Assembly: GCA_033763735.1 (NCBI GenBank)
Contig: JANRJY010000115.1
Coordinates: 26,612-90,611 of the forward strand
Reading direction: 5' to 3'
DNA length: 64,000 bases
DNA from: Bacteroidota bacterium
GTDB lineage: Bacteria > Bacteroidota > Bacteroidia > Cytophagales > UBA9547
Under the pieces are notes generated by a model that was not told the origin of the DNA, did not search any database, and was given only the letters and a program-made list of their open reading frames with translations. Made by a program: the position numbers and the translations under genes. This document shows positions 3,932 through 22,878 of this stretch, piece after piece. Numbering within the stretch: the first letter of the stretch is position 1; each line of letters begins with the position of its first letter.

Positions 3932-4867
3932 TTAATTTAATGCTAAAAGTATATTATTTTCTATTCTTTTTTCAATATTTAAGTAGATATCTTTCACAAA
4001 ATTTTCACCCGTAAGTTTTTCGTAAAGCTCTATATATCTTTCAGTTACATTTTCAATAAATTGATCCGGCATTATTGGCACCGTTTGGCCTTCTTTTCCC
4101 ATGAAATTATGATCAATTAACCATTGACGCACAAATTCTTTAGACAATTGTTTTTGTGCTTCTCCTGTTTTTTGGCGTTCTTCGTAACCTTCTTTATGAA
4201 AATATCGGGATGAATCCGGAGTGTGAATTTCATCAATCAAATAAATAACGCCATCCTTCTTGCCGAACTCATATTTAGTATCCACCAATATCAGTCCTTG
4301 TTTGGAAGCTATTTCTTGACCCCTTTTGTATAATGCCAATGTAAGTCGTTCCAATTCAGTATAGTCTTTCTCCGATACGATTCCTTTTTTAAGTATTTGC
4401 TCTTTGGAAATATCTTCATCATGTCCTTCCGAGGCCTTTGTTGTAGGTGTGATAATTGGAGTAGGGAAAGCATCGCTTTCTTTCAATCCATCCGTCATTG
4501 GCACACCACAAAGTTCACGTTTGCCTTCTTTATATTGCCTCCATGCATGTCCTGACAAATATCCGCGTACCACCATTTCTACTTTAAATGGTTCACAATT
4601 ATAACCAATAGCCACATTAGGGTCTGGGGAACTGATGAGCCAATTTGGACATATATCTTTTGTTTTTTCCAACATTTGCACGGCCAATTGATTCAAGACT
4701 TGACCTTTGTATGGAATAGGTTTTGGCATTACTACATCAAATGCTGATATGCGATCTGAAGCAACTATAATGAGCTTATCTCCAACCGAATACACATCAC
4801 GTACTTTACCACGATAAAAATTCGTTTGTCCCGGCAAACGAAAATTGGTTTCTTTGAGTCCTGTCAA
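3932..4867 (-). CDS. purC: SAICAR synthetase
   Basis: [26 protein letters not shown] and [10 protein letters not shown] motifs. Confidence 0.97.
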
Positions 4868-11606: not shown

Positions 11607-12011
11607 TCAATTGTTTTTTTCTAAATCTTCAATTTGAATATCTAACGCTTTGGTTGAAAGAATAATTTCCATGGAACAAACCAAAAGTGAGATTAATAAT
11701 AGTACCTGGCTAATACCGAACATATATCCCGCTACTTCTGTATAATCTTGATATATCAAAAACATAGTTGCTGCAGCAAAAAACACGGATGCAATACCGA
11801 GCAATTGCATATTACGAATCAAATGAATTCTCCTTCTTAAAATATGAATTTGTTTGCGGATTATTTCTGTGTTTTCGTTTTTGTATTGTGCATACAATAA
11901 CCTGATTCTGTTACTGATGGCTACGTATCTATTTCCATAAGATAATAACAATAGCGAAACTGTTGGAAAAAGTAAAGCCGGAGTGGTAATAGATAATTGC
12001 TGATGCATCAA
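11607..12011 (-). CDS. DUF2721-like small membrane protein
   Basis: TPALLFPTVSLLLLSYGNRY N-terminus, three hydrophobic segments. Confidence 0.7.
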   Translation of the reverse strand: MMHQQLSITTPALLFPTVSLLLLSYGNRYVAISNRIRLLYAQYKNENTEIIRKQIHILRRRIHLIRNMQLLGIASVFFAAATMFLIYQDYTEVAGYMFGISQVLLLISLLVCSMEIILSTKALDIQIEDLEKNN

Positions 12012-14116
12012 TAGCCCATGGGCAGTTTTATTGTGAAAGTGCTTCCTTCGTTAGGTTTGCTTTCTGCAGTAATATCGCCTCTATTCATTTGGACAAAATC
12101 TTTGCAAAGCATAAGTCCCAAGCCACTTCCTTTTTCCTTTTTAGTTCCAGGCAAAGTGTTTCTTGTATCGGGATTAAATAAGTTATCTAACATGCTTTTG
12201 TCCATACCTATGCCGTTGTCAATAATTTTGATTACTACACTTTTATTTTCCTCCAATATCTCCACTTTTACTTCCCCTCCGGTGTTGGTAAACTTGATCG
12301 CATTGTGAATAATATTCCGGAATATAAACTCGAGCATGTTTTTGTCGCCCATTACCTCTATTTCTTCGTTGGCTTGAAGTACAAATGATATATGTTTGTC
12401 CAAAAACTGAGGCAAAAACAATTCAGCCTGTTTTTTAATCAATTGAACCAAATTAACATGTACAATGCTTACCTGAATAGCACCGGATTGGACCATGGCC
12501 CATTCCAGCAAATTATTAAGCAATCCGGAAAGATTTGAAAGCGATACATCCATGATATGCGCAAAATCTTTAATTTCTTTGCTCGATATATTTTCAGGAA
12601 ATTCTTTGGCGATGTTCAGATATCCTTTCAATGAATTTAATGGAGCCTTTATATCGTGTGAAATAATTGAGAAAAACTTATCCTTGGTTGAGTTAAGTGT
12701 ACTGAGTTCAGTTTCCGATTCCTTAAGTTCGTATATGATATGTTCCAGATCTTTGTTTTGTTTGTAAAGTATGGCATTCAACCGCTTTTTTAACAAATAC
12801 CTATTGTATATCAGGAGTGCCAGGAACAATAGCAATACTGACAAAGCAGATAAGGTATACAACCAAATGGCACTTTTTTCAAGTTCCAGTTTGTCTATCT
12901 CCTTTTCTTTTTTTAACAATCGAATCTGAATTTGTTTCTTTTCAATTTCCATTTGAGCACGCAGCTTTTGCAATTCATCTTCTTTTTCTTCAGCATAAAT
13001 CAAATCGCGCTCAGCCACATATTTTTGATAATAATTAAAGGCATTTTTGTAGTCTTGCATTAAGCTCAAACATAGCGATATGCCCTTATAGGATTCCATT
13101 TTGGATATTTTCAAATTTTGCTCTTTTGAAAGCTCCAGAACTTCTTTATATTTGATAATGGCACCTTTATAGTTTTTAGTATTCAGTTCAATATCGCCCA
13201 ATGATACCAAACAAGCAGCCATTTCATGATAATTCTCTTCTTTTTTGTATAGCTCTATTGAGTAATTAAAGTTGTTTTTCGCTTCAATAAAATTACCCAT
13301 TTGTTTGTATACCACCGCAATTTGTTTCAAAGCCTGTGCTGCTTTATTTGATTTTGTTTTCTTGTTTTTGATGGATGATGATTGTATATTTTTTCCCGCA
13401 TTTTTATCTTGTTGAAGCTGATTCGCATTTGACTCTTTTTCTTCTCTTTCGCTTTCTCTGCTTATTTCGGTAACGGGTTCTTCTTCAATTTTTTTCAAAT
13501 CGTTCTTTTTAATTTGTTTAAATATTATAGAAGCGTTTTCTAGCGCTTTTTGAGCCTTTTCCATTTCTTTAAGTTCAAAGTATATACTACCGAGCTTTGA
13601 ATAGGTATTGGCTTGTCCATAGGGATTTGATGCTTGTTTGTACGTTTCGATTAATTGCATACATTTTTGTTCTGCTTCTTCAAATTCCTTTAGTTTAATT
13701 TTGCATTCTACAATTTTTTCTAATGCAACTATCTGATTTTCATAATCTTTGTATTTAATTGCAAGACTAAGGGAAGATGAATAATACCCTTCGGCCGACT
13801 TATAATCCTTATTGTGATAATACAAATTGCCGTACAAATAATATGCGGTTTGCTTACGGATATCATCTTTGGATTCCTGTATGAGCTGTAGAGCATATTC
13901 CAAAGAAGCACTTGCCTTGGCTGACTGGTCTGATTCTATTGATTTTTTTATTTCTTTAAATAAACTGTCAATTTTGAAAGGGTAGTTTTTTTTGGATTTA
14001 GTCTGCCCCACCAAAATCGTTTGGCATAAAAAAATAAGAAGAAAAACAACAACTACACGTATCAAAATGTATGAGAAATCTATTTTTGAATATCCTTTTG
14101 GGTAATTTAAAATCAA
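12008..14116 (-). CDS. TPR-repeat sensor histidine kinase
   Basis: Periplasmic TPRs, TM helix, H-box FFSIISHDIKAPL, N-box NIIHNAIKF, G-boxes DNGIG and GSGLGL. Confidence 0.93.
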   Translation of the reverse strand: MILNYPKGYSKIDFSYILIRVVVVFLLIFLCQTILVGQTKSKKNYPFKIDSLFKEIKKSIESDQSAKASASLEYALQLIQESKDDIRKQTAYYLYGNLYYHNKDYKSAEGYYSSSLSLAIKYKDYENQIVALEKIVECKIKLKEFEEAEQKCMQLIETYKQASNPYGQANTYSKLGSIYFELKEMEKAQKALENASIIFKQIKKNDLKKIEEEPVTEISRESEREEKESNANQLQQDKNAGKNIQSSSIKNKKTKSNKAAQALKQIAVVYKQMGNFIEAKNNFNYSIELYKKEENYHEMAACLVSLGDIELNTKNYKGAIIKYKEVLELSKEQNLKISKMESYKGISLCLSLMQDYKNAFNYYQKYVAERDLIYAEEKEDELQKLRAQMEIEKKQIQIRLLKKEKEIDKLELEKSAIWLYTLSALSVLLLFLALLIYNRYLLKKRLNAILYKQNKDLEHIIYELKESETELSTLNSTKDKFFSIISHDIKAPLNSLKGYLNIAKEFPENISSKEIKDFAHIMDVSLSNLSGLLNNLLEWAMVQSGAIQVSIVHVNLVQLIKKQAELFLPQFLDKHISFVLQANEEIEVMGDKNMLEFIFRNIIHNAIKFTNTGGEVKVEILEENKSVVIKIIDNGIGMDKSMLDNLFNPDTRNTLPGTKKEKGSGLGLMLCKDFVQMNRGDITAESKPNEGSTFTIKLPMGY

Positions 14117-14297: not shown

Positions 14298-14318
14298 GTG
14301 TTGGTGGAAGTACATTTT

Positions 14319-15272
14319 TTATAGCCATTCTTTAATCTGCTGTTCAGTCAAATTACGTCCACATATTATGCTGCATAGCTTTTTATTTTTAAATTTTTGT
14401 TGATTTTCTAAAATGGCAGCTATACCAACCGCAGCAGATGGTTCTACAATTAATCCCTCATGACTATTTATAAGCTTAATTCCTTCGACAATACTCTGGT
14501 CGCTTACTAAAATTCCCTCGTCTATTAATTCCATCATATCCTTTATAACCTCTGGGATAGGCAATCGAACTGCTATACCGTCAGCAATTGTGTTAGCCAC
14601 TAAAAAATTAATCACATCATTTTTTTTCCACGATTCAATCATCGCTGGGGCGCCTTTTGCTTGAACCGCTATTATTTTTGTTTCCGGAGAATATTCTTTA
14701 AAAACTTTAGCAATTCCTGTTGCTAATGCACCATTCCCAAGTGCAATTAGCAAATAATCTAATTTTTTTGGCAAGTTCAACAATTCTAATCCTATCGTTG
14801 CCGCCCCTTCTACAGTTTCAATATCTAAGCTATCTTCAACAAATCTAATTTGTGCTTTTTTTGAAAATAATTTAGCTTCTGATTTAGCCTCATCAAAATC
14901 ATTTCCATATAAAACCACATTTGCTCCTAAAGACCTCATCTTTTCAACTTTTAAGCAATTAGCATTTTGACTTGCGTATATCGTTGTTTTTATACCCCTC
15001 TTATTACATGAGTAAGTTAAAGCCTGACCAAAATTACCTGCGCTTGCACAAACTAATTCAGGAATATCACCTAAATTTGAAGTTAACAACTCTGTTCCTC
15101 TTCCTTTAAAAGAACCTATAGAATTTTGGGTTTCATCTTTTAAAAAGATTTCGCACTGAAGTACATCTGAAAGAGAATCAGATTTATATTGTGGAGAATC
15201 CAAAAATAGAGGGTCAATTCTATTAACAGCTTCTTTTATTCTTGAGATAGTGATTCTGGTTGTCGTCTTCAT
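14319..15272 (-). CDS. PLP-dependent threonine/serine dehydratase family enzyme (cassette 5)
   Basis: GSFKGRG (PLP Lys), ASAGNFGQ, ALGNGAL, EPSAAVG; start moved to ATG 15272 because the upstream in-frame region is the recombination site. Confidence 0.88.
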   Translation of the reverse strand: MKTTTRITISRIKEAVNRIDPLFLDSPQYKSDSLSDVLQCEIFLKDETQNSIGSFKGRGTELLTSNLGDIPELVCASAGNFGQALTYSCNKRGIKTTIYASQNANCLKVEKMRSLGANVVLYGNDFDEAKSEAKLFSKKAQIRFVEDSLDIETVEGAATIGLELLNLPKKLDYLLIALGNGALATGIAKVFKEYSPETKIIAVQAKGAPAMIESWKKNDVINFLVANTIADGIAVRLPIPEVIKDMMELIDEGILVSDQSIVEGIKLINSHEGLIVEPSAAVGIAAILENQQKFKNKKLCSIICGRNLTEQQIKEWL

Positions 15273-15280
15273 TTTTTGTA

Positions 15281-15484
15281 TTTCCACCAATGGCTCGGTT
15301 GTTGCCGAATGTTGAAACGGGCTGGTGGCACACCAGCATAAAGTTTCGACATGAAGGCTGCAAAGCCCGTTTTCAATTTCGGCAACAAAGGTGTTGTGTC
15401 GAAGTTTTCTCTTGGTACAAAGGTAAGAAAAAGAACGAAGCAGAAAACGGGCATTTGCATCAACCGAGCCATTGGGCAAAATTT
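15281..15484 (-). repeat. Variant attC-like site with AAT/ATT cores
   Basis: Perfect 15-bp inverted repeat CCAATGGCTCGGTTG (15287-15301)/CAACCGAGCCATTGG (15461-15475); internal IR 15299-15309/15378-15388. Confidence 0.65.
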
Positions 15485-15685
15485 AGGATGCGGGAATGCG
15501 AGGCACGAGCATGAAGCATCCGAGTGCGAAGGGAACGATTTATTCGGATATTGAGTTGAGAAACGAATGTTGTATATGCTGCTTGGCAGGCCAAAGCTTA
15601 GGTTAAATGTAGCAGGTATTCCAAGTAGCATATACATAAATGAGTTAGCGAATAAATCGTGCGCGTTTGTAAAATTTTGCCCAAC
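15471..15685. other. ORF-less structured cassette (cassette 4)
   Basis: Ends ATTGGGCAAAATTT/AAATTTTGCCCAAC are complementary at 13/14; nested IRs 15535-15546/15649-15660 and 15571-15586/15621-15636. Confidence 0.6.
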
Positions 15686-15812
15686 GGTTTGGGTATTGCC
15701 GAAGGCGGGGAATTTCAGCACTATCGCTCAATGGAAATGCAAATGTTTAACTATTTCTGTCAGCCAAATAGATATTGTCAAGCCCCGCTTTTGGCAATAC
15801 CATGTTGGCGGT
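15677..15812 (-). repeat. attC-like site (136 bp)
   Basis: TTGCCCAAC-ggtttg-GGTATTGCCGAAGGCGGGG ... CCCCGCTTTTGGCAATACC-at-GTTGGCGGT; stem 17/19 Watson-Crick plus 2 G.T. Confidence 0.85.
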
Positions 15813-15842
15813 TCGTGCTTGTCATGGTGCAGCAGCTATATT

Positions 15843-17573
15843 CTAAAAACCACCCATTGGTAGATACTTGCCGCTTGTTTTCATCTCCAAGTTTTTCTCG
15901 TTGCTAAAGCCCAATCCTTTTGTTTGGTATGTCTCGTCAAAAATATCTGTTAGGTCAGGGGTCAAAGCAAACACGTTGTCCTCAGATGCAATTTGCTTTC
16001 TGTCTAATTTATTATTAAGAAAGGCACCACAGACCTCTAATTCGTCACTGGTTATAAGCTTGCCATGTAATTGTTCTCTTAAGATAAGAAAATCTGTTAG
16101 GTCAGATTTCTTTTTTCCTAATTTTTCCATCTGAAGTAGAAAGATTTCCAAGTCGTCAATGCAAATGCTCCAAGGATAATCATCATCATCATAAATTTCA
16201 AGCATATAGCTTAGGTCAGTTTGGATTTGTCCAAATCTTTCAAGGGTGACAACTATTGAGACAGCCTTGTGATAATTTTTCGTTCTTATATCAATTACAT
16301 GGTTTTTTAACGCCTCATCTTTGAAGATTTTAAGAGGTTCACGATTAATGAACTTTGATTTGACTCTATATGCTTGGTCATAGCCCTTCTGAATTGTCTC
16401 CTCAAAATTCGATACGATTAATGGATACGCCATATCGGGTTCTCTACGCGGTTCGTCACGTTTTGATGCCTTGGCTTCTATAATTAAAGCCAATCCCTCG
16501 TACAGAAACAATAAATCCTGTTCGTGTTTGTCTTGCGTGAAAAAGCTCTTATATACAAAGGCTTTGTTCTTAAAAAATCTTTGGAAAATACTTTCTATTT
16601 TATCCTCAAGTTTCTTCCCTCTCACTGCGTAATATTTTTCATTCAGTGCTGGTTGGGAAATGCAGAACTGAAACAATACATTATAAACCGCTTGGATGAT
16701 TTGATGCGTCTCAATTAACTGAAATTCTTCGTCATTAATATTAAATATTGGCTTTGAATGAAGCGGGTTCTTCTCTGTGTAATACAAAAAATTTGTTTGC
16801 TGTCTTTTACAGGTGAACGTATTTAAGAATGCATTTGCTTTTTGCTCCCCAAACTTTTCAATTAAGGATTGCTTTGAATACCGTTGCATTTTCCCCTTAT
16901 CATACATCCATTCAAACATGTTTTGAAAGTGTTGCGGTAAATGTGGCTGCCATTCCCAAGGTGGAATACTTTTAGCTTGCATTTCGTCACCAAATTCTTC
17001 CCACGTTTGCTGTCCCTCTTTCTTATTTATATTTTCATTTAAAAAGTTGTTAGGAACTTGGTCAATATAATTGTAGATGTCAATAAAATCTGCCACAGAT
17101 AAACCTAATTGACTACTTATTTCTTTGTCAAATGGTTTAAAGTATTCTTCAACTCTTTCAATGATTTGCTCTTCGTAGTTTAATAACCCTTGATTGAAGT
17201 AACTAAGGAATGTAGGCATTGCAACCATTCTTCTCATCTTCCAATCTTCATCAACTACATCATCTGGTTTAGGATAAAAGAATTGTTCATAGCCTGTTTC
17301 TATCTCATTCAACAACGACTTCATGTGTTCAAAGTCTTCGTCTGAATATTGAGCCTTAAGCGGCTCTGTTTCGCTTTTAGCAGAAGTAACATTCAATGCC
17401 GCCAAATACAGCAGTTGTCGCTGTGGTGACGACAAGCCATTCAGTGATTTCATTGGGCTGTCAAAGCGGATAAACTGCATCAAACTTGAGATGTCGCCAA
17501 GAAACATTGGCGTTTCAAATTGGCTAACAAAGTCTTTTAGTTCTTTAGATTTTTGAGCAAGGTCAATCTTCAT
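15843..17573 (-). CDS. Uncharacterised protein with C-terminal PD-(D/E)XK (NERD-like) nuclease fold (cassette 3)
   Basis: GKKLEDKI...EQDLLFLYEGLALIIEAKAS gives an E...D...EAK arrangement; downstream Q..Y.QA helix. Confidence 0.6.
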   Translation of the reverse strand: MKIDLAQKSKELKDFVSQFETPMFLGDISSLMQFIRFDSPMKSLNGLSSPQRQLLYLAALNVTSAKSETEPLKAQYSDEDFEHMKSLLNEIETGYEQFFYPKPDDVVDEDWKMRRMVAMPTFLSYFNQGLLNYEEQIIERVEEYFKPFDKEISSQLGLSVADFIDIYNYIDQVPNNFLNENINKKEGQQTWEEFGDEMQAKSIPPWEWQPHLPQHFQNMFEWMYDKGKMQRYSKQSLIEKFGEQKANAFLNTFTCKRQQTNFLYYTEKNPLHSKPIFNINDEEFQLIETHQIIQAVYNVLFQFCISQPALNEKYYAVRGKKLEDKIESIFQRFFKNKAFVYKSFFTQDKHEQDLLFLYEGLALIIEAKASKRDEPRREPDMAYPLIVSNFEETIQKGYDQAYRVKSKFINREPLKIFKDEALKNHVIDIRTKNYHKAVSIVVTLERFGQIQTDLSYMLEIYDDDDYPWSICIDDLEIFLLQMEKLGKKKSDLTDFLILREQLHGKLITSDELEVCGAFLNNKLDRKQIASEDNVFALTPDLTDIFDETYQTKGLGFSNEKNLEMKTSGKYLPMGGF

Positions 17574-17612
17574 CTTATAAGTCTCTGATTAGTTGAGGAG
17601 TGTTGTAGCATG

Positions 17613-17751
17613 ACCGCCAACGGTCCGCGGCTACCCGCAGTGCGGGCGTATAAAAGTAAGCAGTTCAGCGAGTTCGAGCAAATTAAATTTCCTGTAATTT
17701 GCTCGAACGAAAGGCAAGCTGCCCGCATTGTGGGTAGGCGCTGTTAGCGGT
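17613..17751 (-). repeat. attC-like site (139 bp)
   Basis: ACCGCCAAC-ggtcc-GCGGCTACCCGCAGTGCGGGC ... GCCCGCATTGTGGGTAGGCGC-t-GTTAGCGGT; inner perfect 14-bp IR 17672-17685/17695-17708. Confidence 0.88.
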
Positions 17752-17761
17752 TGTAATACTT

Positions 17762-18616
17762 TTAGTTGTCGCATTGATATTCATTCCAATAGTCGTTCAT
17801 TTTTGGGGTGGGTAGTTTACCATTCAACCTTTTTATAACTTTTAGTTCTCTGCAAATACATTCTCTCAATCCTTCTGTATATCTGTCTAGTTGTCGTGGA
17901 GTTATGTTAGGATTACCGACAGCATCTTGGAAGTCAGTCCAACAAATGTCAACTCTTCCTTTAAGCGTGTTTAATACAGGAGTTGGAATTAATTGTTGCA
18001 ATAGTAGTCCTTCAGAGATTACAGATTGAGAACTGGTTATTTCGTCAAACTGATTAACTTTCGATTTTACTGCATCAACATTCTTAGTTTCACGCCAAAG
18101 TTGTAAAACTTGAAGTCCAACTGAGATTACCCCAGTTACAAATTGTCCTAAACCGTAATCCATAGTTTTTTTATTTTTAAAATTTTGTTTGAATAATTTT
18201 TGTAAAATTTCCTTTTGAACAAAGGGTAAATGTTCTTCGTAAATCGTTGCAGAACGAATATTGGTTAACTTTCCTTCTATGTCTGGAATTACGACTTGAA
18301 ATTCTTCAGTAACAATCCATTTAACATTAATGAAAAATCCATTCCAGTCAGAAAGTTTGTCAAATGAAAGTTTGTCCTCAATCAAGCTATGCACAAACGA
18401 AGTCTTCACAACGCCTATTGCTTTTACTCTAATTGTACGTGAACCACCTCGGTTTGCTTTTAGATAAATAATATCGCCAGCCTTCAAAAGTGCAACCGTG
18501 TCAAACAAATCTTTTGCGTGTTGATAATCCCAACCAACAACAAAGTATTCGTTCGCTATGAAGTCGTCTTTAAGTTCGTCTCCGTCCCAGTTTGAGCCTG
18601 CTCCAAATATTGCCAT
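17762..18616 (-). CDS. Bipartite hypothetical protein, N-terminal EVE/PUA-like domain (cassette 2)
   Basis: VGW...LKAGDIIYLK...IGVV...VKW pattern; A-rich internal start at 18163 (MDYGL...). Confidence 0.5.
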   Translation of the reverse strand: MAIFGAGSNWDGDELKDDFIANEYFVVGWDYQHAKDLFDTVALLKAGDIIYLKANRGGSRTIRVKAIGVVKTSFVHSLIEDKLSFDKLSDWNGFFINVKWIVTEEFQVVIPDIEGKLTNIRSATIYEEHLPFVQKEILQKLFKQNFKNKKTMDYGLGQFVTGVISVGLQVLQLWRETKNVDAVKSKVNQFDEITSSQSVISEGLLLQQLIPTPVLNTLKGRVDICWTDFQDAVGNPNITPRQLDRYTEGLRECICRELKVIKRLNGKLPTPKMNDYWNEYQCDN

Positions 18617-18649
18617 TTTACATTTTCTTTGTCGTTATGTTTAATTATT

Positions 18650-18785
18650 GCCGCTAACGTTTTGGCGCTTGGCGAAGAAGCGGATTTCGAAGCACTAAAC
18701 TGTCAACCCAGCACAAAAGTTGATACGAGGCAGAATGTTCATTTAACCACTGAACCCGCTTTTTTGCCAAACGCCTGTTACCGGT
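18650..18785 (-). repeat. attC-like site (136 bp)
   Basis: GCCGCTAAC-gtttt-GGCGCTTGGCGAAGAAGCGG ... CCGCTTTTTTGCCAAACGCC-t-GTTACCGGT; stem 17/20 Watson-Crick; related in sequence to the 15677 site. Confidence 0.88.
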
Positions 18786-18799
18786 AGTTATTCTCTCTG

Positions 18800-19582
18800 T
18801 CATAGTATGTCATTTGCGTCAACAGAAATCCCTAGTGCTTTTAATTCCTTGACCAAGTCGAATTGCCACTTACCTGACTTGTCAAAAGGAACAAACAATA
18901 CGCCACTGTAGTCAGAAGGAATTTCAAAATCGTTCTCTTGTTCATGTAAAGCTAAAACCCTGTCCCGTCCCAATTTGCCAATGAAATACCCTAGTTCAAA
19001 AATAACATTTTGTCTTGCCCTATATTTCGCAGTTTCAGGCTTCTCGCTTTTGTTGTATGAAATGTCGTCTGCTGAAAGTAGGACAACAGCAAAAGAAACT
19101 TCAGAATTGTCCGTGAATTTTTCAATGATTGTCTTTCCCTTGCTTGGTTGCTCGTGTAATATTATTGGATTAAGTTTCAATTTCTCAATTGTCCTTGCAA
19201 CAGCTAATTTCATTTCTTCATTGTGTCCATGCACAATAAAAACATTATTTGAATTCGGTGAAGATTTGTCCGCTAGTTTTTTAGGTTCATTAATAACTGT
19301 GTCCAATTGCAGGTCTTCTGCTATGACATTTAATAGATTTAGAAGTTGCTTTTTACCACTGTTAAAACTACTTTCAAACGCACTGTCAGGGGTTCCAGAT
19401 GTCCAAATACTAGGTGAATATCTAATTGCTTTTAAAGACTTTAAATAATGAGTGCTGTCACCAAATATTTTTCGCAACAGCATTTCTGCTCTTTTCTCAA
19501 CTGCATCACGTTGTCCATTTCGATAGGCAATTTGTTCTGCTTGGTTTATTAAGTCCTGAATAAGTTCTATGTTTTTACTCAT
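18800..19582 (-). CDS. TIR-like nucleotide-binding domain protein (CAP12/Pycsar-type TIR) (cassette 1)
   Basis: VFIVHGH, PIILHEQ, TIIEKF, FAVVLLSADD, RARQNVIFELGYFIG and PSD motifs. Confidence 0.88.
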   Translation of the reverse strand: MSKNIELIQDLINQAEQIAYRNGQRDAVEKRAEMLLRKIFGDSTHYLKSLKAIRYSPSIWTSGTPDSAFESSFNSGKKQLLNLLNVIAEDLQLDTVINEPKKLADKSSPNSNNVFIVHGHNEEMKLAVARTIEKLKLNPIILHEQPSKGKTIIEKFTDNSEVSFAVVLLSADDISYNKSEKPETAKYRARQNVIFELGYFIGKLGRDRVLALHEQENDFEIPSDYSGVLFVPFDKSGKWQFDLVKELKALGISVDANDIL

Positions 19583-19605
19583 GCGTTTGTGTCGTCTTTA
19601 TAATT

Positions 19606-19717
19606 ACCGGTAACATCCTTGTATACGCATATTGCGTATACATACTATTATTTACATGTTTTTGTATTGCGTATATATCTTGTATTTAGGAAATATACGA
19701 ACTTTTATTTTTTTCAA
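19606..19717 (-). promoter_or_regulatory. Putative attI-like entry site and Pc-like promoter of the array
   Basis: Core GTTACCGGT (19614-19606); 10-bp palindrome 19620-19642; direct repeat TATTGCGTATA at 19630-19640 and 19665-19675; TTG-N17-TATATTTC on minus (19717-19690). Confidence 0.55.
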
Positions 19718-19957
19718 TAATAACCATTATTTTTTACAATTTACCTACACTTATATCTTTATTGCTATTTACAACACCTATATGTAACAATATAAAAACC
19801 ACGAGGTGAGGCTTTCGGTTTTGAATTGAACATGTTATATCTCAAATTTTACTTCACTTGATACTTTGACCGAGGTTGGTAAGTAATAGGTTTTTGCAAT
19901 GGTTTTAAATAATTGGTTTATTGGTGAAATGAAATTGATTAAAAAGTAAAAAATGAA

Positions 19958-19996
19958 AGATTGCTTCAGTCGCTGAAAAAGCGACTTCGCAATGAC
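19958..19996. repeat. REP-like element, AGATTGCTTC...CGCAATGAC family
   Basis: Same termini at 32498-32537 and 42009-42035; inner hairpin AGTCGCT/AGCGACT. Confidence 0.7.
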
Positions 19997-20001
19997 GACC
20001 T

Positions 20002-20403
20002 TTATAAAGCCCTGAAGGCATTTTTAATGCATTTTGTATATTTTGTTGACTTGTAGCAACGATTCCGTGGGCTGAAAAAATGATTCCGTGGGCTGAAGAA
20101 ATGATTCCGTGGGCTGAAGGAATGATTCCTTGGGCTGAAGCAATGATTCTTTGGGCTGAAGGAATGATTCCGTGGGCTGAAGAAATGATTCCGTGGGCTG
20201 AAGCAATGATTCCTTGGGCTGAAGCAATGATTCCTTGGGCTGAAGCAATGATTCCTTGGACTGAAAGAATGATTCCTTGGACTGAAAAAATGATTCCTTG
20301 GGCTGAAGGAATGATTCCGTGGGCTGAAGAAATGATTCCTTGGGCTGAAAAAATGATTCTGTGAGCTGAAGAAATGATTCATTGGAATGAAATACTGAAC
20401 CAA
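20002..20403 (-). CDS. Possible heptapeptide-repeat protein (NH[F/S/C]FSPR)n
   Basis: ATG-started open frame across the whole tandem repeat; three of four recurrent unit variants are silent in this frame. Confidence 0.3.
   Translation of the reverse strand: MVQYFIPMNHFFSSQNHFFSPRNHFFSPRNHSFSPRNHFFSPRNHSFSPRNHCFSPRNHCFSPRNHCFSPRNHFFSPRNHSFSPKNHCFSPRNHSFSPRNHFFSPRNHFFSPRNRCYKSTKYTKCIKNAFRAL
20059..20394. repeat. 21-bp tandem repeat (VNTR), 15 units plus 1 degenerate unit
   Basis: Unit ATGATTCC(G/T)TGG(G/A)CTGAA(G/A)(A/G/C)A recurring every 21 bp from 20059 to 20374, no spacers. Confidence 0.97.
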
Positions 20404-20481: not shown

Positions 20482-21561
20482 TTATTGTGGGTTTTGAACC
20501 CTCAAAAGGTTTTTGGAAATCCTTTTATATACCAAATCCACAATTTCTTGAGGTTCAATTTGCTCCATACAAGCATGGTCTTTCCGGTAACATGCTTTAT
20601 TGCCATACACAGAACAAGGTCGACAAGACAAATTACCCAACCCATACACACCTGTTTCTGATTGTTGATAAGGCGTAAATCCTGTGTAAGAATGTGTGGG
20701 CCCCCATATGCTCAAAAGTGGTGTGCCACAGAGAGCGGCCAAGTGCATATTGGCTGAGTCCATAGTTATCATCAAGTCTAATTTGGAAATGACACCCATT
20801 TCTGACGTTAATCCATTAGTCAAATCTGTCATAATAAACACCCCATTCAATCCTTGAGCAAGGGCTTCCATTTTTGTTTTTTCGGCTTTACTGCCAAACA
20901 GATAGATATTTGATTTGCCATCATGAACTAAAATTTCAATGATTTTTTTTGAATGCCTATCCGGAAGTATTTTAAGAAAATGTGCCGCAAAAGGAGCAAA
21001 TCCAATATGGTATTTTCCATTGGGTTTCGATTTCAAGAGTTCTAAGGCTGCTTTTGTAGCTGATGGCTCAGGTTCAAAATACATTGCATGCTCGGATATT
21101 GAAAAAGAATAACCTGCTTTTGCAAATACTTCCAAATACCTATCCGAAGTACTTTTGACAAGTAGTAGTTTTTTGTTATTTCTTCTGGTTAAGGCTTTTT
21201 TTTCGGTCCTCCCTTTGTCAATGATTGCGATTTTGTTTCCGGTAAACCATAAGAAAGTTCTTACGATTTGGGTGCGCAATACATCGTGCATATCTAAAAT
21301 AGCTTCAAACGGCCCTGATTTTGATAGAAATATGAACAATTTCCAAAGGCCAATGATGCCTTTATAATCCTTCATATCTAATCCTATAAATATTAGATTA
21401 GGAATATTTTGGAATAGGGGAGCAAAGTTTTTTCGGGAAACAAATACAACTTCTTTATCCGGAAATGCCTCTGCAAAATTGCGTAATACCGGCCAAAGTA
21501 TGGCCACATCACCCATTGCTGAAAGACGAATTACTAAAAGTTTGCCTTTGGAATTATGAAT
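20482..21561 (-). CDS. Glycosyltransferase family 9 (LPS heptosyltransferase-like)
   Basis: LLVIRLSAMGDVA, DSANMHLA, WGPT and CRPCS motifs; true start uncertain (first ATG at 21516 lies inside the conserved motif). Confidence 0.88.
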   Translation of the reverse strand: MHNSKGKLLVIRLSAMGDVAILWPVLRNFAEAFPDKEVVFVSRKNFAPLFQNIPNLIFIGLDMKDYKGIIGLWKLFIFLSKSGPFEAILDMHDVLRTQIVRTFLWFTGNKIAIIDKGRTEKKALTRRNNKKLLLVKSTSDRYLEVFAKAGYSFSISEHAMYFEPEPSATKAALELLKSKPNGKYHIGFAPFAAHFLKILPDRHSKKIIEILVHDGKSNIYLFGSKAEKTKMEALAQGLNGVFIMTDLTNGLTSEMGVISKLDLMITMDSANMHLAALCGTPLLSIWGPTHSYTGFTPYQQSETGVYGLGNLSCRPCSVYGNKACYRKDHACMEQIEPQEIVDLVYKRISKNLLRVQNPQ

Positions 21562-22156
21562 TTGCGTTTGAATACAAGGATGGGTTTAGCTCCTGACTAT
21601 TATACATTTTCATTTGGCGGTACACCCGAAAATATCGGGTGCCTTTGCTTATTTCATCAATAAGCTGATCAAAACAGGTACTCATATCTGTGCGTTGTTC
21701 CAGTAATATGGCAAGTTTGTTTTTGCATTTATCAATGTGTGCTTGATCTACATTGGTACGCAAGGTTTGTTCCTCCATATGGTATATTTTCAATTCCAAT
21801 ATACTCATACGGTCAAGCAACCATGCAGGCGTTTCGGAGTTCATTCGGGCATTGGAACTTTGCTTAACATCTTTAAATTCAGAATGTACCAAATCATCCA
21901 GTAGTTCCACAGTGTCAGTTCGTTCTTGATTGAGTTTGTCGATATTGCGTTTTATTCGTACCAAATCTTGGTCCGGAAGGTCAGGACGTCTGATTTCGTC
22001 TTCCTCATGCCACTGAATGGTGTCAATATGGTTTTTCTTATACAATAAATAAGCTGCCGAATGCTCAGGAAAAGGATTGGAAGCGGGAGATAGGTTTTTG
22101 TGCCAATCAGTTATGGATTGAATAAATATTTTGATGGCTTCACTTGCCTGTAACAT
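21554..22156 (-). CDS. DUF4254 family protein
   Basis: IDTIQWHEED, IDKLNQERTD, NSETPAWLLDRMSILELKIYHM, YRQMKMYN; start set at ATG 22156. Confidence 0.8.
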   Translation of the reverse strand: MLQASEAIKIFIQSITDWHKNLSPASNPFPEHSAAYLLYKKNHIDTIQWHEEDEIRRPDLPDQDLVRIKRNIDKLNQERTDTVELLDDLVHSEFKDVKQSSNARMNSETPAWLLDRMSILELKIYHMEEQTLRTNVDQAHIDKCKNKLAILLEQRTDMSTCFDQLIDEISKGTRYFRVYRQMKMYNSQELNPSLYSNANS

Positions 22157-22209
22157 ATTGCATTGAATTTTGTTGCAAGATAGTACATAAGAACCAAAGA
22201 CTAAAAAAT

Positions 22210-22235
22210 GAAAATGAAGGTTAGATATTAATACC
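22210..22235 (+). repeat. 26-bp direct repeat, left copy
   Basis: GAAAATGAAGGTTAGATATTAATACC, identical to 24054-24079. Confidence 0.9.
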
Positions 22236-22878
22236 CTTAACTGTTCCAAATTTGGAGATCTATTTCAAATAAATCATAGTATAACGTAGAACAGCTTCCA
22301 ATCTAGGTTTTCTGCACCAACCCTAGCTTGTGTAACACCTAGTGTTCTGTAATACAAATCCGTATGGAAAATAAAAACAAAATATTTCCGGTTCCCACAA
22401 ACACTCCTGAAGTAATAAATTAAAAGCTATTACACGTATATAATGTGTGTTATAAAATAAATTATTAGATTTGTTTTATAACAGTTAGTGTTAAAATGTG
22501 AAAAGAATATACAAAAAGTTTGCACCGGCAGAGCTAAACTTCTATTTATGACTTATTTAAGGCGCTTAAAAACAACACAAGCAATTGAAAAATGATAAAA
22601 GCACATATACATCCACGATTTGAAAAGAAATGGTCTAATTCAAGGACAGTAATCCTAAAATATTAAATATCAGTCAAAACCAAAAAACTGGTGTAAATAT
22701 TTGTTGATTTTAATGGTTTCATAGTTGCACATTGTGTTTTTTGCATTTGAAATTGATCCCCAAAGTGGTTTTAACCAAGGGAGTTATCTTTTAGTCTAAT
22801 GAGAAAAGCATAATATTGGAGGTATTGCCAAGGATCTAAATAAATTTTTAAGTATTGTTTAACAAATAAAAAATCAGA

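Follow-up and report, generated by a model that had tools for sequence, protein, structure and literature searches.

Integron-like Gene Cassettes in a Genome of the Class Bacteroidia and a Candidate Integrase without the I2 Insertion

The window analyzed here is a 64,000-nucleotide (nt) stretch of a Bacteroidota genome (assembly GCA_033763735.1, contig JANRJY010000115.1). We report on an array of five co-oriented units at positions 14,300 to 19,614 of this window that an earlier note, made from the letters of the DNA, had described as an integron-like cassette array without an integrase. These units are five mobile cassettes behind a secondary attI-like docking site, and their array was likely built in trans by an IntI-related tyrosine recombinase that is encoded elsewhere in the genome and lacks the I2 insertion of integron integrases. 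Identical cassettes sit behind different sites in this genome, the sites contain a covarying hairpin, and a platform site of the same type adjoins the gene of the I2-less enzyme.

Results

Cassette Ends Match and Hairpins Belong to the Upstream Cassette

On the minus strand, each unit has the polarity of an integron cassette: it runs from a G/TT core through an open reading frame (ORF) to AAC and a hairpin that closes in the next G/TT (table 1). Over the 6 nt beyond the cores, the two ends of the five cassettes are complementary at 29 of 30 positions, the best result among 120 pairings (mean 17, second best 27). Our recheck agrees with the earlier note on all five end pairs, including their coordinates and their scores of 9/9, 8/9, 9/9, 13/14, and 9/11, and on the closeness of the start codons to the core (19–45 nt past it, or 22–48 nt from the G). 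The note had also held that the two outer ends of a hairpin are unmatched; they do fall far below the cassette ends, but they are not unrelated, with 4, 5, 2, and 3 matches of 6 (14/24 in total). Where it counted three full sites there are four, the additional one being site D. Each cassette begins with G/TT plus 6 nt and ends with the complementary 6 nt plus AAC, which is the trace left when a circle opens within its own site, and the hairpin is a property of the upstream cassette, with which it travels. Behind the AAC of cassette 5 we found no hairpin and no match to the covariance model R2 described below; this hairpin has been lost, and a short repeat known from elsewhere in the genome takes its place. 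Scans against Rfam assigned the window sites to no family (the sole match, rli53 at E 0.056, is a chance one) and returned nothing at gathering level for sites in three site-rich stretches (L055, L063, and L125).

Upstream of cassette 1 lies the docking site, with the architecture short palindrome, 9 nt, GTT. A tblastn search for an integrase remnant at this locus found none; the description of the array as integrase-less applies to the locus but not to the genome, which carries an intact candidate on contig C46 and a fragment on contig C91.

Table 1. Features of the cassette array in the window (strand as read in the window; end match over the 6 nt beyond the cores)
Feature	Position	Strand	Length	End match	Description
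attI-like docking site	19612..19767	-			core G/TT, G at 19614; non-hairpin element
Docking site, palindrome	19620-19642	-			10-bp palindrome holding inverted half-site 6 nt upstream of core
Docking site, extra repeat	19666-19676	-			additional TATACGCAA copy
Cassette 1	18658..19613	-	956 nt	6/6	ORF 18800-19582, 260 aa, TIR-domain protein
Site A	18656..18779	+ (= bottom strand)	124 nt		attC-like hairpin; fold z = -2.3
Cassette 2	17621..18657	-	1037 nt	5/6	ORF 17762-18616, 284 aa
Site B	17619..17745	+	127 nt		attC-like hairpin; fold z = -7.9
Cassette 3	15685..17620	-	1936 nt	6/6	ORF 15843-17573, 576 aa
Site C	15683..15806	+	124 nt		attC-like hairpin; fold z = -2.5; moves together with cassette 3
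Cassette 4	15291..15684	-	394 nt	6/6	no convincing gene
Site D	15289..15473	+	185 nt		atypical hairpin; AAT/ATT core; no R' bulge
Cassette 5	14300..15290	-		6/6	ORF 14319-15269, 316 aa; AAC end only
21-bp tandem repeat	20061..20385	.			15.5 copies; upstream of docking site

Cassettes Have Moved as Units with a Crossover at G/TT

Cassette 4 is present in four further copies in this genome, 97–99% identical: two on contig C18 (one whole, one cut by the contig end), one on C62 directly behind an attI-like site, and one on C17. In every copy the homology ends at the cores and the neighbors differ. Cassette 4 ends in A/TT before four different neighbors, starts with G/TT in three contexts, and has AAT at its own inner end. 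Because it keeps A/TT at its end and takes the upstream G at its start, the R' triplet's first base remains part of the upstream site; the crossover falls after this base, as in integrons, the TT itself being uninformative. A search for cassette 4 in 300 other genomes of the order did not find it.

Eight metagenome runs from eight studies, chosen as holding part of the window, were searched as assembled contigs, which drop rare variants. Cassette 3 is the only long part of the array covered in all eight, at about 99% identity (about 16 differences in 1.9 kb). In two runs (X1 and X12) it lies inside longer contigs (2.6 and 11.4 kb) with unlike flanks on both sides and match limits of 15681–17623 and 15685–17621. 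In runs X5, X10, and X11 one or both limits are contig ends and so possible assembly breaks, and in X16 the match ends at 15805, ahead of site C. Among distant homologues of cassette 3, two are first cassettes behind attI-like sites and have matched ends; two others are not intact cassettes. The metagenome scan with cassette 5 returned homologues at 28–36% only. No RNA data set was listed as containing this DNA. This genome is the sole member of its genus in our sample, and the four family homologues of the flanking GT9 gene have no R2 site within about 1.5 kb.

These units are mobile. The matched ends, the relocated identical cassettes, and the limits that fall exactly on the cores bear out the earlier claim of mobile cassettes that integrate at G/TT and leave hybrid sites.

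The End-Matching Rule Extends to Other Genomes

We scanned this genome and its relatives with a covariance model, as the earlier note had proposed. The model, R2, was built from 27 training sites including site A, with a hand-set structure and unpaired outer flanks, and it replaced heuristic scans that had returned mostly terminators (59 matches) or, in a strict version, 11 matches against 3 in shuffled DNA. At E ≤ 0.1, R2 detects 25 sites in the present genome; at least one site is present in 52 of 61 genomes, this one included, and some hold single sites. Of 21 cassettes in this genome, a set that includes the degenerate C96 locus and one short C22 site from the strict heuristic scan, 17 match at all 6 nt (permuted mean 0.9, maximum 6).

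The rule was also examined in 20 site-rich stretches from ten relatives. The stretches lay outside the training set, and five of the genomes had contributed other training sites. From 80 R2 matches we removed two cut by contig ends and four opposite-strand duplicates; the remaining sites gave 54 adjacent pairs, from which a 97-nt pair and one with a non-canonical core were dropped, leaving 52 cassettes. Their ends match perfectly at 4 nt in 48 cases (permuted mean 2.1, maximum 10) and at 6 nt in 47. The two ends of one and the same hairpin match in only 5 of 69 hairpins from these relatives. Strands are mixed in none of the 20 stretches, and co-orientation extends to the longest ORF in 35 of 39 cassettes. 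The earlier note had named scattered sites that ignore the end-matching rule as a finding that would speak against a cassette system, and the permutation statistics contradict such a picture.

The Hairpin Is Bulged on the R' Arm and Asymmetric between Strands

Across the 69 sites from ten relatives, the top strand reads AAC, a 5-nt spacer, and an xTT box, with T7 invariant (69/69); GTT is preceded by C in every site. In 65 of 69 sites the best pairing of the inner stem leaves 3–4 extra nt on the R' arm, and along the first 16 nt of the R'' arm no position shows an additional base in over 3 of 69. The 20-bp stem covaries at low sequence conservation: covariation is 0.44 against 0.13 in shuffled and at most 0.08 in slid alignments when the alignment is the one fitted to the model, and 0.30 against 0.13 on a MAFFT alignment. 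Two A/C oppositions are conserved; only the bottom strand can pair them, as G·T, and at modeled circle junctions the bottom strand folds better by 3.7–9.7 kcal/mol for all four cassettes.

Two further types of element were seen near such sites. At L044 (334–645 and 2058), downstream of an integrase gene in genome G058, repeated elements open long frames with identical N-termini, which suggests a divergent, longer site type that R2 detects weakly. At L095 (1264–1339) the 3' end of a group II intron recognized by Rfam abuts the 5' core of a cassette, and at L123 (2598–9401) intron parts lie between sites; these recall the group IIC-attC introns.

attI-like Docking Sites Adjoin a Family of Recombinases That Lack I2

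The genome has eight attI-like sites. Two follow integrase sequence, with the same core motif 220 nt downstream of the C46 integrase and downstream of the C91 fragment; the other six, on C85, C86, C105, C21, C62, and, in degenerate form, C96, have no neighboring integrase sequence. The window site is 85–87% identical over 157–282 nt to its paralogues on C86, C105, and C21. First cassettes behind attI-like sites match 6/6 in five of the six scored, C96 being the exception. Among 30 enzyme loci, 26 have at least 150 nt of downstream sequence, and in 17 of these, including the genome that supplied the motif, GCGTA-N9-GTTR occurs within 800 nt downstream of the enzyme gene, compared with 4.6% of random windows. 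TAnnTTTG is a promoter-like word; the platform in the window has one near-match (TAnnTTTC) 83 nt upstream of the core, and site D contains TAnnTTTG at 15425 on the top strand.

Two observations concern the surroundings of these sites. Ahead of their attI-like sites, window positions 19780–20400 and C86:30300–30900 share the 21-bp tandem repeat, a palindrome resembling repetitive extragenic palindromic (REP) elements, and a short, decayed ORF, which suggests that the platform was duplicated as a block. The TACGCAA/TTGCGTA word of the docking site recurs on the flanks of a TAnnTTTG-like word that lies upstream of both the integrase gene (C46:71800–71850) and its decayed copy (C91, around 3960–4000), hinting at possible autoregulation.

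The earlier note had also asked for tyrosine recombinases that co-occur with the sites and had placed the recombinase in trans. The genome, 98.8% complete, gives 13 tyrosine-recombinase matches, none above the IntI cut-off. The best candidate is an intact IntI-related protein of 536 residues on C46; its gene stops 220 nt upstream of an attI-like core, which stands at the contig's end. On C91, a co-oriented array is headed by a decayed copy. The intact gene beside a docking site of the matching type agrees with the note's expectation, with action on the window platform as our extrapolation. The protein scores 225.9 bits with TIGR02249 (cut-off 265) and is not a canonical integron integrase, but exceeds the threshold of NCBIfam NF040815, "site-specific tyrosine recombinase/integron integrase" (222.9 against 220). 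Its catalytic motif set is complete (R392, H481/R484, H507, and Y516), and its nearest solved relative is IntI4. The I2 insertion is absent, the enzyme having 69 residues where IntIs have 111: the distance from KGxKDR to HxLRH is 69–70 residues in 30 insertion-less sequences (26 family members, TnpF, one plasmid relative, and two IS91-linked enzymes) compared with 111 in 13 IntIs. In a quick tree of uncertain root, these Bacteroidota enzymes have both the IntI clade and the two IS91-linked enzymes branching among them, and XerC/D stand apart.

Homologues of the enzyme occur in 28 of 60 relatives, many of the loci having co-oriented sites downstream of the gene. The median number of R2 sites per genome is 8.5 with the enzyme and 1 without, in a sample whose members are kin and hence not independent and whose assemblies are mostly fragmented. 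A gene for a single-stranded DNA-binding protein (ssb) lies directly behind the integrase in 7 of 26 loci. The 245 N-terminal residues of the C46 enzyme form three α/β repeats in an alignment-based structure model (pLDDT 83, pTM 0.44). A weak but concordant likeness to HARP appears in 33 of 72 members by Pfam (E ≤ 0.05, best 1.6e-5), in the SMARCAL1 structure 4o66 (E 0.037), and in the T4 UvsW N-terminal domain (residues 1–87; Z 6.4, below the tool's caution line of 8; rmsd 3.0 over 65 aligned residues, a weak fold comparison). HARP domains bind the junctions where single-stranded DNA meets double-stranded DNA. Some family members, of 262–320 residues, have no N-terminal repeat, and so HARP-like domains are not universally required. 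One member without the repeats, of 283 residues (L051: 17474–19559, genome G027), has an upstream site that is divergently oriented, which is the classical integron layout.

In the other classes of the phylum canonical IntI is common: it exceeds its cut-off in 90 of 301 sampled genomes, with only one listed positive in the class of this genome. The earlier note had called the phylum unusual for integrons; this is too broad for the phylum and holds for the class, which is where the gap in canonical integrons lies.

Cargo of the Array and Its Neighbors

The cassette 1 protein matches Pfam CAP12-PCTIR_TIR (E 6e-38) and PADLOC PDC-S35 (E 2e-83) and is predicted to be an anti-phage protein; its homologue in genome G137 also lies in a matched-end cassette. 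A family search of the cassette 2 protein in Pfam, PADLOC, and NCBIfam gave no match. The cassette 3 protein is NERD-like by language-model features (Atlas score 0.98; PF08378 on 56% of the top cluster), and the cassette 5 protein resembles pyridoxal phosphate-dependent threonine/serine dehydratases (Pfam PALP, E 5e-68). REP-like repeats are present at the array edges. The flanking host genes encode a histidine kinase with tetratricopeptide repeats (12008–14116) on one side and a GT9 glycosyltransferase with a DUF4254 protein (20482–22249) on the other. Elsewhere in the genome, first cassettes encode GmrSD (behind the C86 site) and a cation-efflux protein (behind the C105 site), and two-gene cassettes at C18:137–900 and C78:1080–1735 resemble Gp49/helix–turn–helix toxin–antitoxin pairs (Pfam helix–turn–helix in both, Gp49 on C78).

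Resistance genes, among them the tet(X) genes for tigecycline resistance, form a second class of cargo. The catalytic part of the C46 enzyme is 70% identical to the TnpF/"xerD" recombinase on Acinetobacter plasmids and on pHH1107, and 51 of 522 plasmid records match at 60–80%; the plasmid copies align only from residue 34 or 55 of the 268-residue query, their 5' end being incomplete. In three records (L121, L122, and L127; 4043–6200) an attI-like site of identical 9-nt spacing comes after TnpF, and then G/TT and, 19 nt on, tet(X3) or tet(X5). Judged by this arrangement, the TnpF-attI-tet(X) segment of the Acinetobacter plasmids and of pHH1107 has the look of a captured platform whose first cassette is tet(X). 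On the Bacteroides thetaiotaomicron plasmid NZ_CP072225, tet(X2) is a complete cassette with 7/7 matching ends and an 87-bit R2 site. Between four R2 sites stand aadS, an inverted ere(D), and tet(X2) (L125: 208–4337), and by its sequence organization we read this region as a cassette array. An Empedobacter plasmid carries lnu(H) as a cassette whose ends match, with an R2 site of 70 bits. On an Escherichia coli tet(X4) plasmid (L126: 1040–3180), an estT-tet(X4) segment begins at GTT behind an attI-like word and ends at a tet(X2)-type 3' end, cut just before the hairpin, its own two ends being unmatched.

Discussion

Proposed Mechanism and Alternatives

We propose that the catalyst is, with good likelihood, the C46 enzyme, given its family, its motifs, and its position beside a docking site. 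It would recombine folded single-stranded hairpins and act in trans on the secondary platform in the window. New cassettes would enter at the attI-like site with its double-stranded core, 6-nt spacer, and extra TACGCAA repeats, and cassette 1 would therefore be the newest. The bottom strand would be the substrate because the conserved G·T pairs favor its fold. The promoterless cassettes would likely be transcribed from the platform, possibly also from cassette 4. At about even odds, we further posit that the bulge by the cut replaces the classical extrahelical bases in strand choice and that the HARP-like repeats, with a linked SSB in some genomes, bind the junction between single and double strands in place of I2.

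Several observations weigh against this scheme. No circular back-joint at the core, which the earlier note had suggested seeking, was seen in the assembled contigs of the eight metagenome runs. The closest homologues of the cassette 5 gene (50–53%) sit outside cassettes; tet(X3) is followed by only the first half-site and its two ends do not match. The bottom-strand advantage of site A in the array is small (−23.0 vs. −22.9 kcal/mol), and site D moves despite having no bulge. The attI motif is missing in 9 of 26 enzyme loci, the complete genome G051 has the enzyme and no R2 match, and 7 of 32 relatives without a detected enzyme hold 10 or more sites. Finally, each HARP signal is weak by itself, and the short family members do without the repeats.

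The site-rich relatives without a detected enzyme, together with the six of eight attI-like sites that have no neighboring integrase sequence, would also fit real cassettes moved by the host XerC/XerD or another tyrosine recombinase, with the HARP-bearing enzyme as a neighbor or an option. We regard this as improbable, given that the attI motif stands at fixed spacing just downstream of the enzyme in 17 of 26 loci, that the enzyme groups with IntI and IS91-linked recombinases rather than with XerC/D in the quick tree, and that most assemblies are fragmented, often breaking at the enzyme locus.

A different objection concerns the substrate: recombination could be an ordinary exchange at double-stranded core sites, the hairpins being RNA or cruciform elements. 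An enzyme without I2, the domain that recognizes extrahelical bases according to the available part of a published account (PMC4792948), and a site D without a bulge speak in favor of such an exchange. The stem, however, covaries despite low sequence conservation, the conserved mismatches pair as G·T only on the non-coding strand, the wrong strand for a structure in mRNA, and the closure of the palindrome falls exactly on the crossover core, all of which make this view quite improbable.

It is very improbable that the array is an ordinary cluster of attC sites lacking integrases (CALIN), whose classical attC cassettes a canonical IntI either left behind or still serves. The GTT/AAC cores, the G after AAC, the 5-nt spacer to an L''-like xTT box, the cassette polarity, and the toxin–antitoxin-like cassettes are indeed shared, and canonical IntI is present in the phylum; but no IntI passes the cut-off in this nearly complete genome, the attI-like sites adjoin the I2-less enzyme, and the extra bases lie on the R' arm, opposite to classical attC as described in the portion of the literature available (PMC2727003). 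Scattered REP-like elements or miniature inverted-repeat transposable elements whose ends match by chance, which the wide and sometimes single occurrence of sites and the REP-like repeats at the array edges might bring to mind, have a negligible likelihood in view of the permutation tests in this and other genomes, the uniform strand and ORF orientation, and the identical units with core-exact limits in different contexts.

Comparison with Known Systems

Searches of the literature on integrons, attC/attI, tnpF, and tet(X) in Bacteroidota, made largely outside the subscription journals, did not find a system of integrase, attI, and cassettes described. In the text available to us, IntegronFinder 2.0 names one complete integron in Bacteroidetes (PMC9024848), and two Elizabethkingia papers report no integrons by IntegronFinder; sites in 52 of 61 sampled genomes would fill a large blind spot. 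The system also offers a mechanism for the gathering of tet(X) and other resistance genes in Bacteroidota, and its arrays are a source of candidate anti-phage genes, such as the TIR protein of cassette 1 and the GmrSD behind the C86 site. In the accessible portion of one account, I2 is held to be essential for cassette recombination and its rise before attC poses a chicken-and-egg problem (PMC4792948); a widespread cassette system without I2 makes the question of its origin directly testable. Our broadest suggestion is tentative, and we would put it at somewhat less than an even chance: that Bacteroidia have their own class-wide cassette system, overlooked by integron screens, in which an I2-less integrase recombines bulged single-stranded hairpins by means of HARP-like fork-binding domains and has assembled tet(X), lnu(H), aadS, and other resistance genes derived from Bacteroidota, an integrase-attI-tet(X) platform having been captured onto Acinetobacter plasmids. 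Such a system may be a living example of the stage, lacking both I2 and extrahelical bases, that gave rise to integrons.

Partial prior art for the attC-like site comes from Riemerella anatipestifer, where, in the sections available of the 2026 report, a gene carried with 27 nt of upstream and 140 nt of downstream sequence inserts without the help of homologous flanks, and attC-like, homology-independent integration is described for aph(3')-IVb, lnu(H), and blaRATA (PMC13148043). The likeness lies in a gene with a short leader and a stem-loop of about 140 bp, in site specificity, and in a Bacteroidota host; in contrast to our system, those sections name no recombinase, attI, or end-matching rule and term the mechanism not yet elucidated (PMC13148043). 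The cassette system would offer a mechanism for this unexplained integration. The TnpF/"xerD" enzymes beside tet(X3) and tet(X5) belong to the same clade as the C46 enzyme (support 98) and share the attI-like site and the G/TT core 19 nt before tet(X), but there and in the CTnDOT-type ermF-tet(X)-aadS region they are annotated as a recombinase or transposase only; the available part of one paper presents tnpF-ermF-tet(X) as an order of genes that is conserved and mentions neither integrons nor cassettes (PMC8693923). An "integron-like" subgroup of tyrosine recombinases, as far as the accessible text describes it, has some members that do not conserve the IntI insertion and counts IS91-linked enzymes in its ranks (PMC8138268). 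The IS91-linked recombinases likewise lack the insertion, but that text assigns no cassette system to insertion-less members (PMC8138268), and an R2 scan beside two IS91-linked genes found no site.

The closest comparison is with integrons, sedentary chromosomal integrons, and CALINs. With these the system shares the G/TT crossover, hairpins of the AAC...GTT type that lie downstream of co-oriented ORFs lacking promoters, hybrid sites, the G after AAC, the xTT box 5 nt after AAC, an attI-like platform, defense and toxin–antitoxin-like cargo, and cassettes without genes; archaeal integrons, in the available part of their description, also have attI downstream of the integrase gene (bioRxiv 2022.02.06.479319). 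IntI carries an I2 insertion of about 42 residues, whereas the enzyme family described here lacks it and often has N-terminal HARP-like repeats. Classical attC sites, in the passages available, carry extrahelical bases on their R''-L'' arm and have a central spacer that is left unpaired on both arms (PMC2727003), whereas the present sites have a 3–4-nt bulge on R' and no conserved extrahelical base on the R'' arm. The system further differs in the complementarity of cassette ends 6 nt beyond GTT (47/52 cassettes), in the ssb gene of some loci, and, in this genome, in several integrase-less attI paralogues. Although the I2 domain and extrahelical bases, two defining features of integrons, are thus absent, the system is integron-like in its working and has several others: the catalytic motifs, an attI beside the integrase (on C46 and C91 and in 17 of 26 loci), attC-type hybrid palindromes, and the G/TT crossover.

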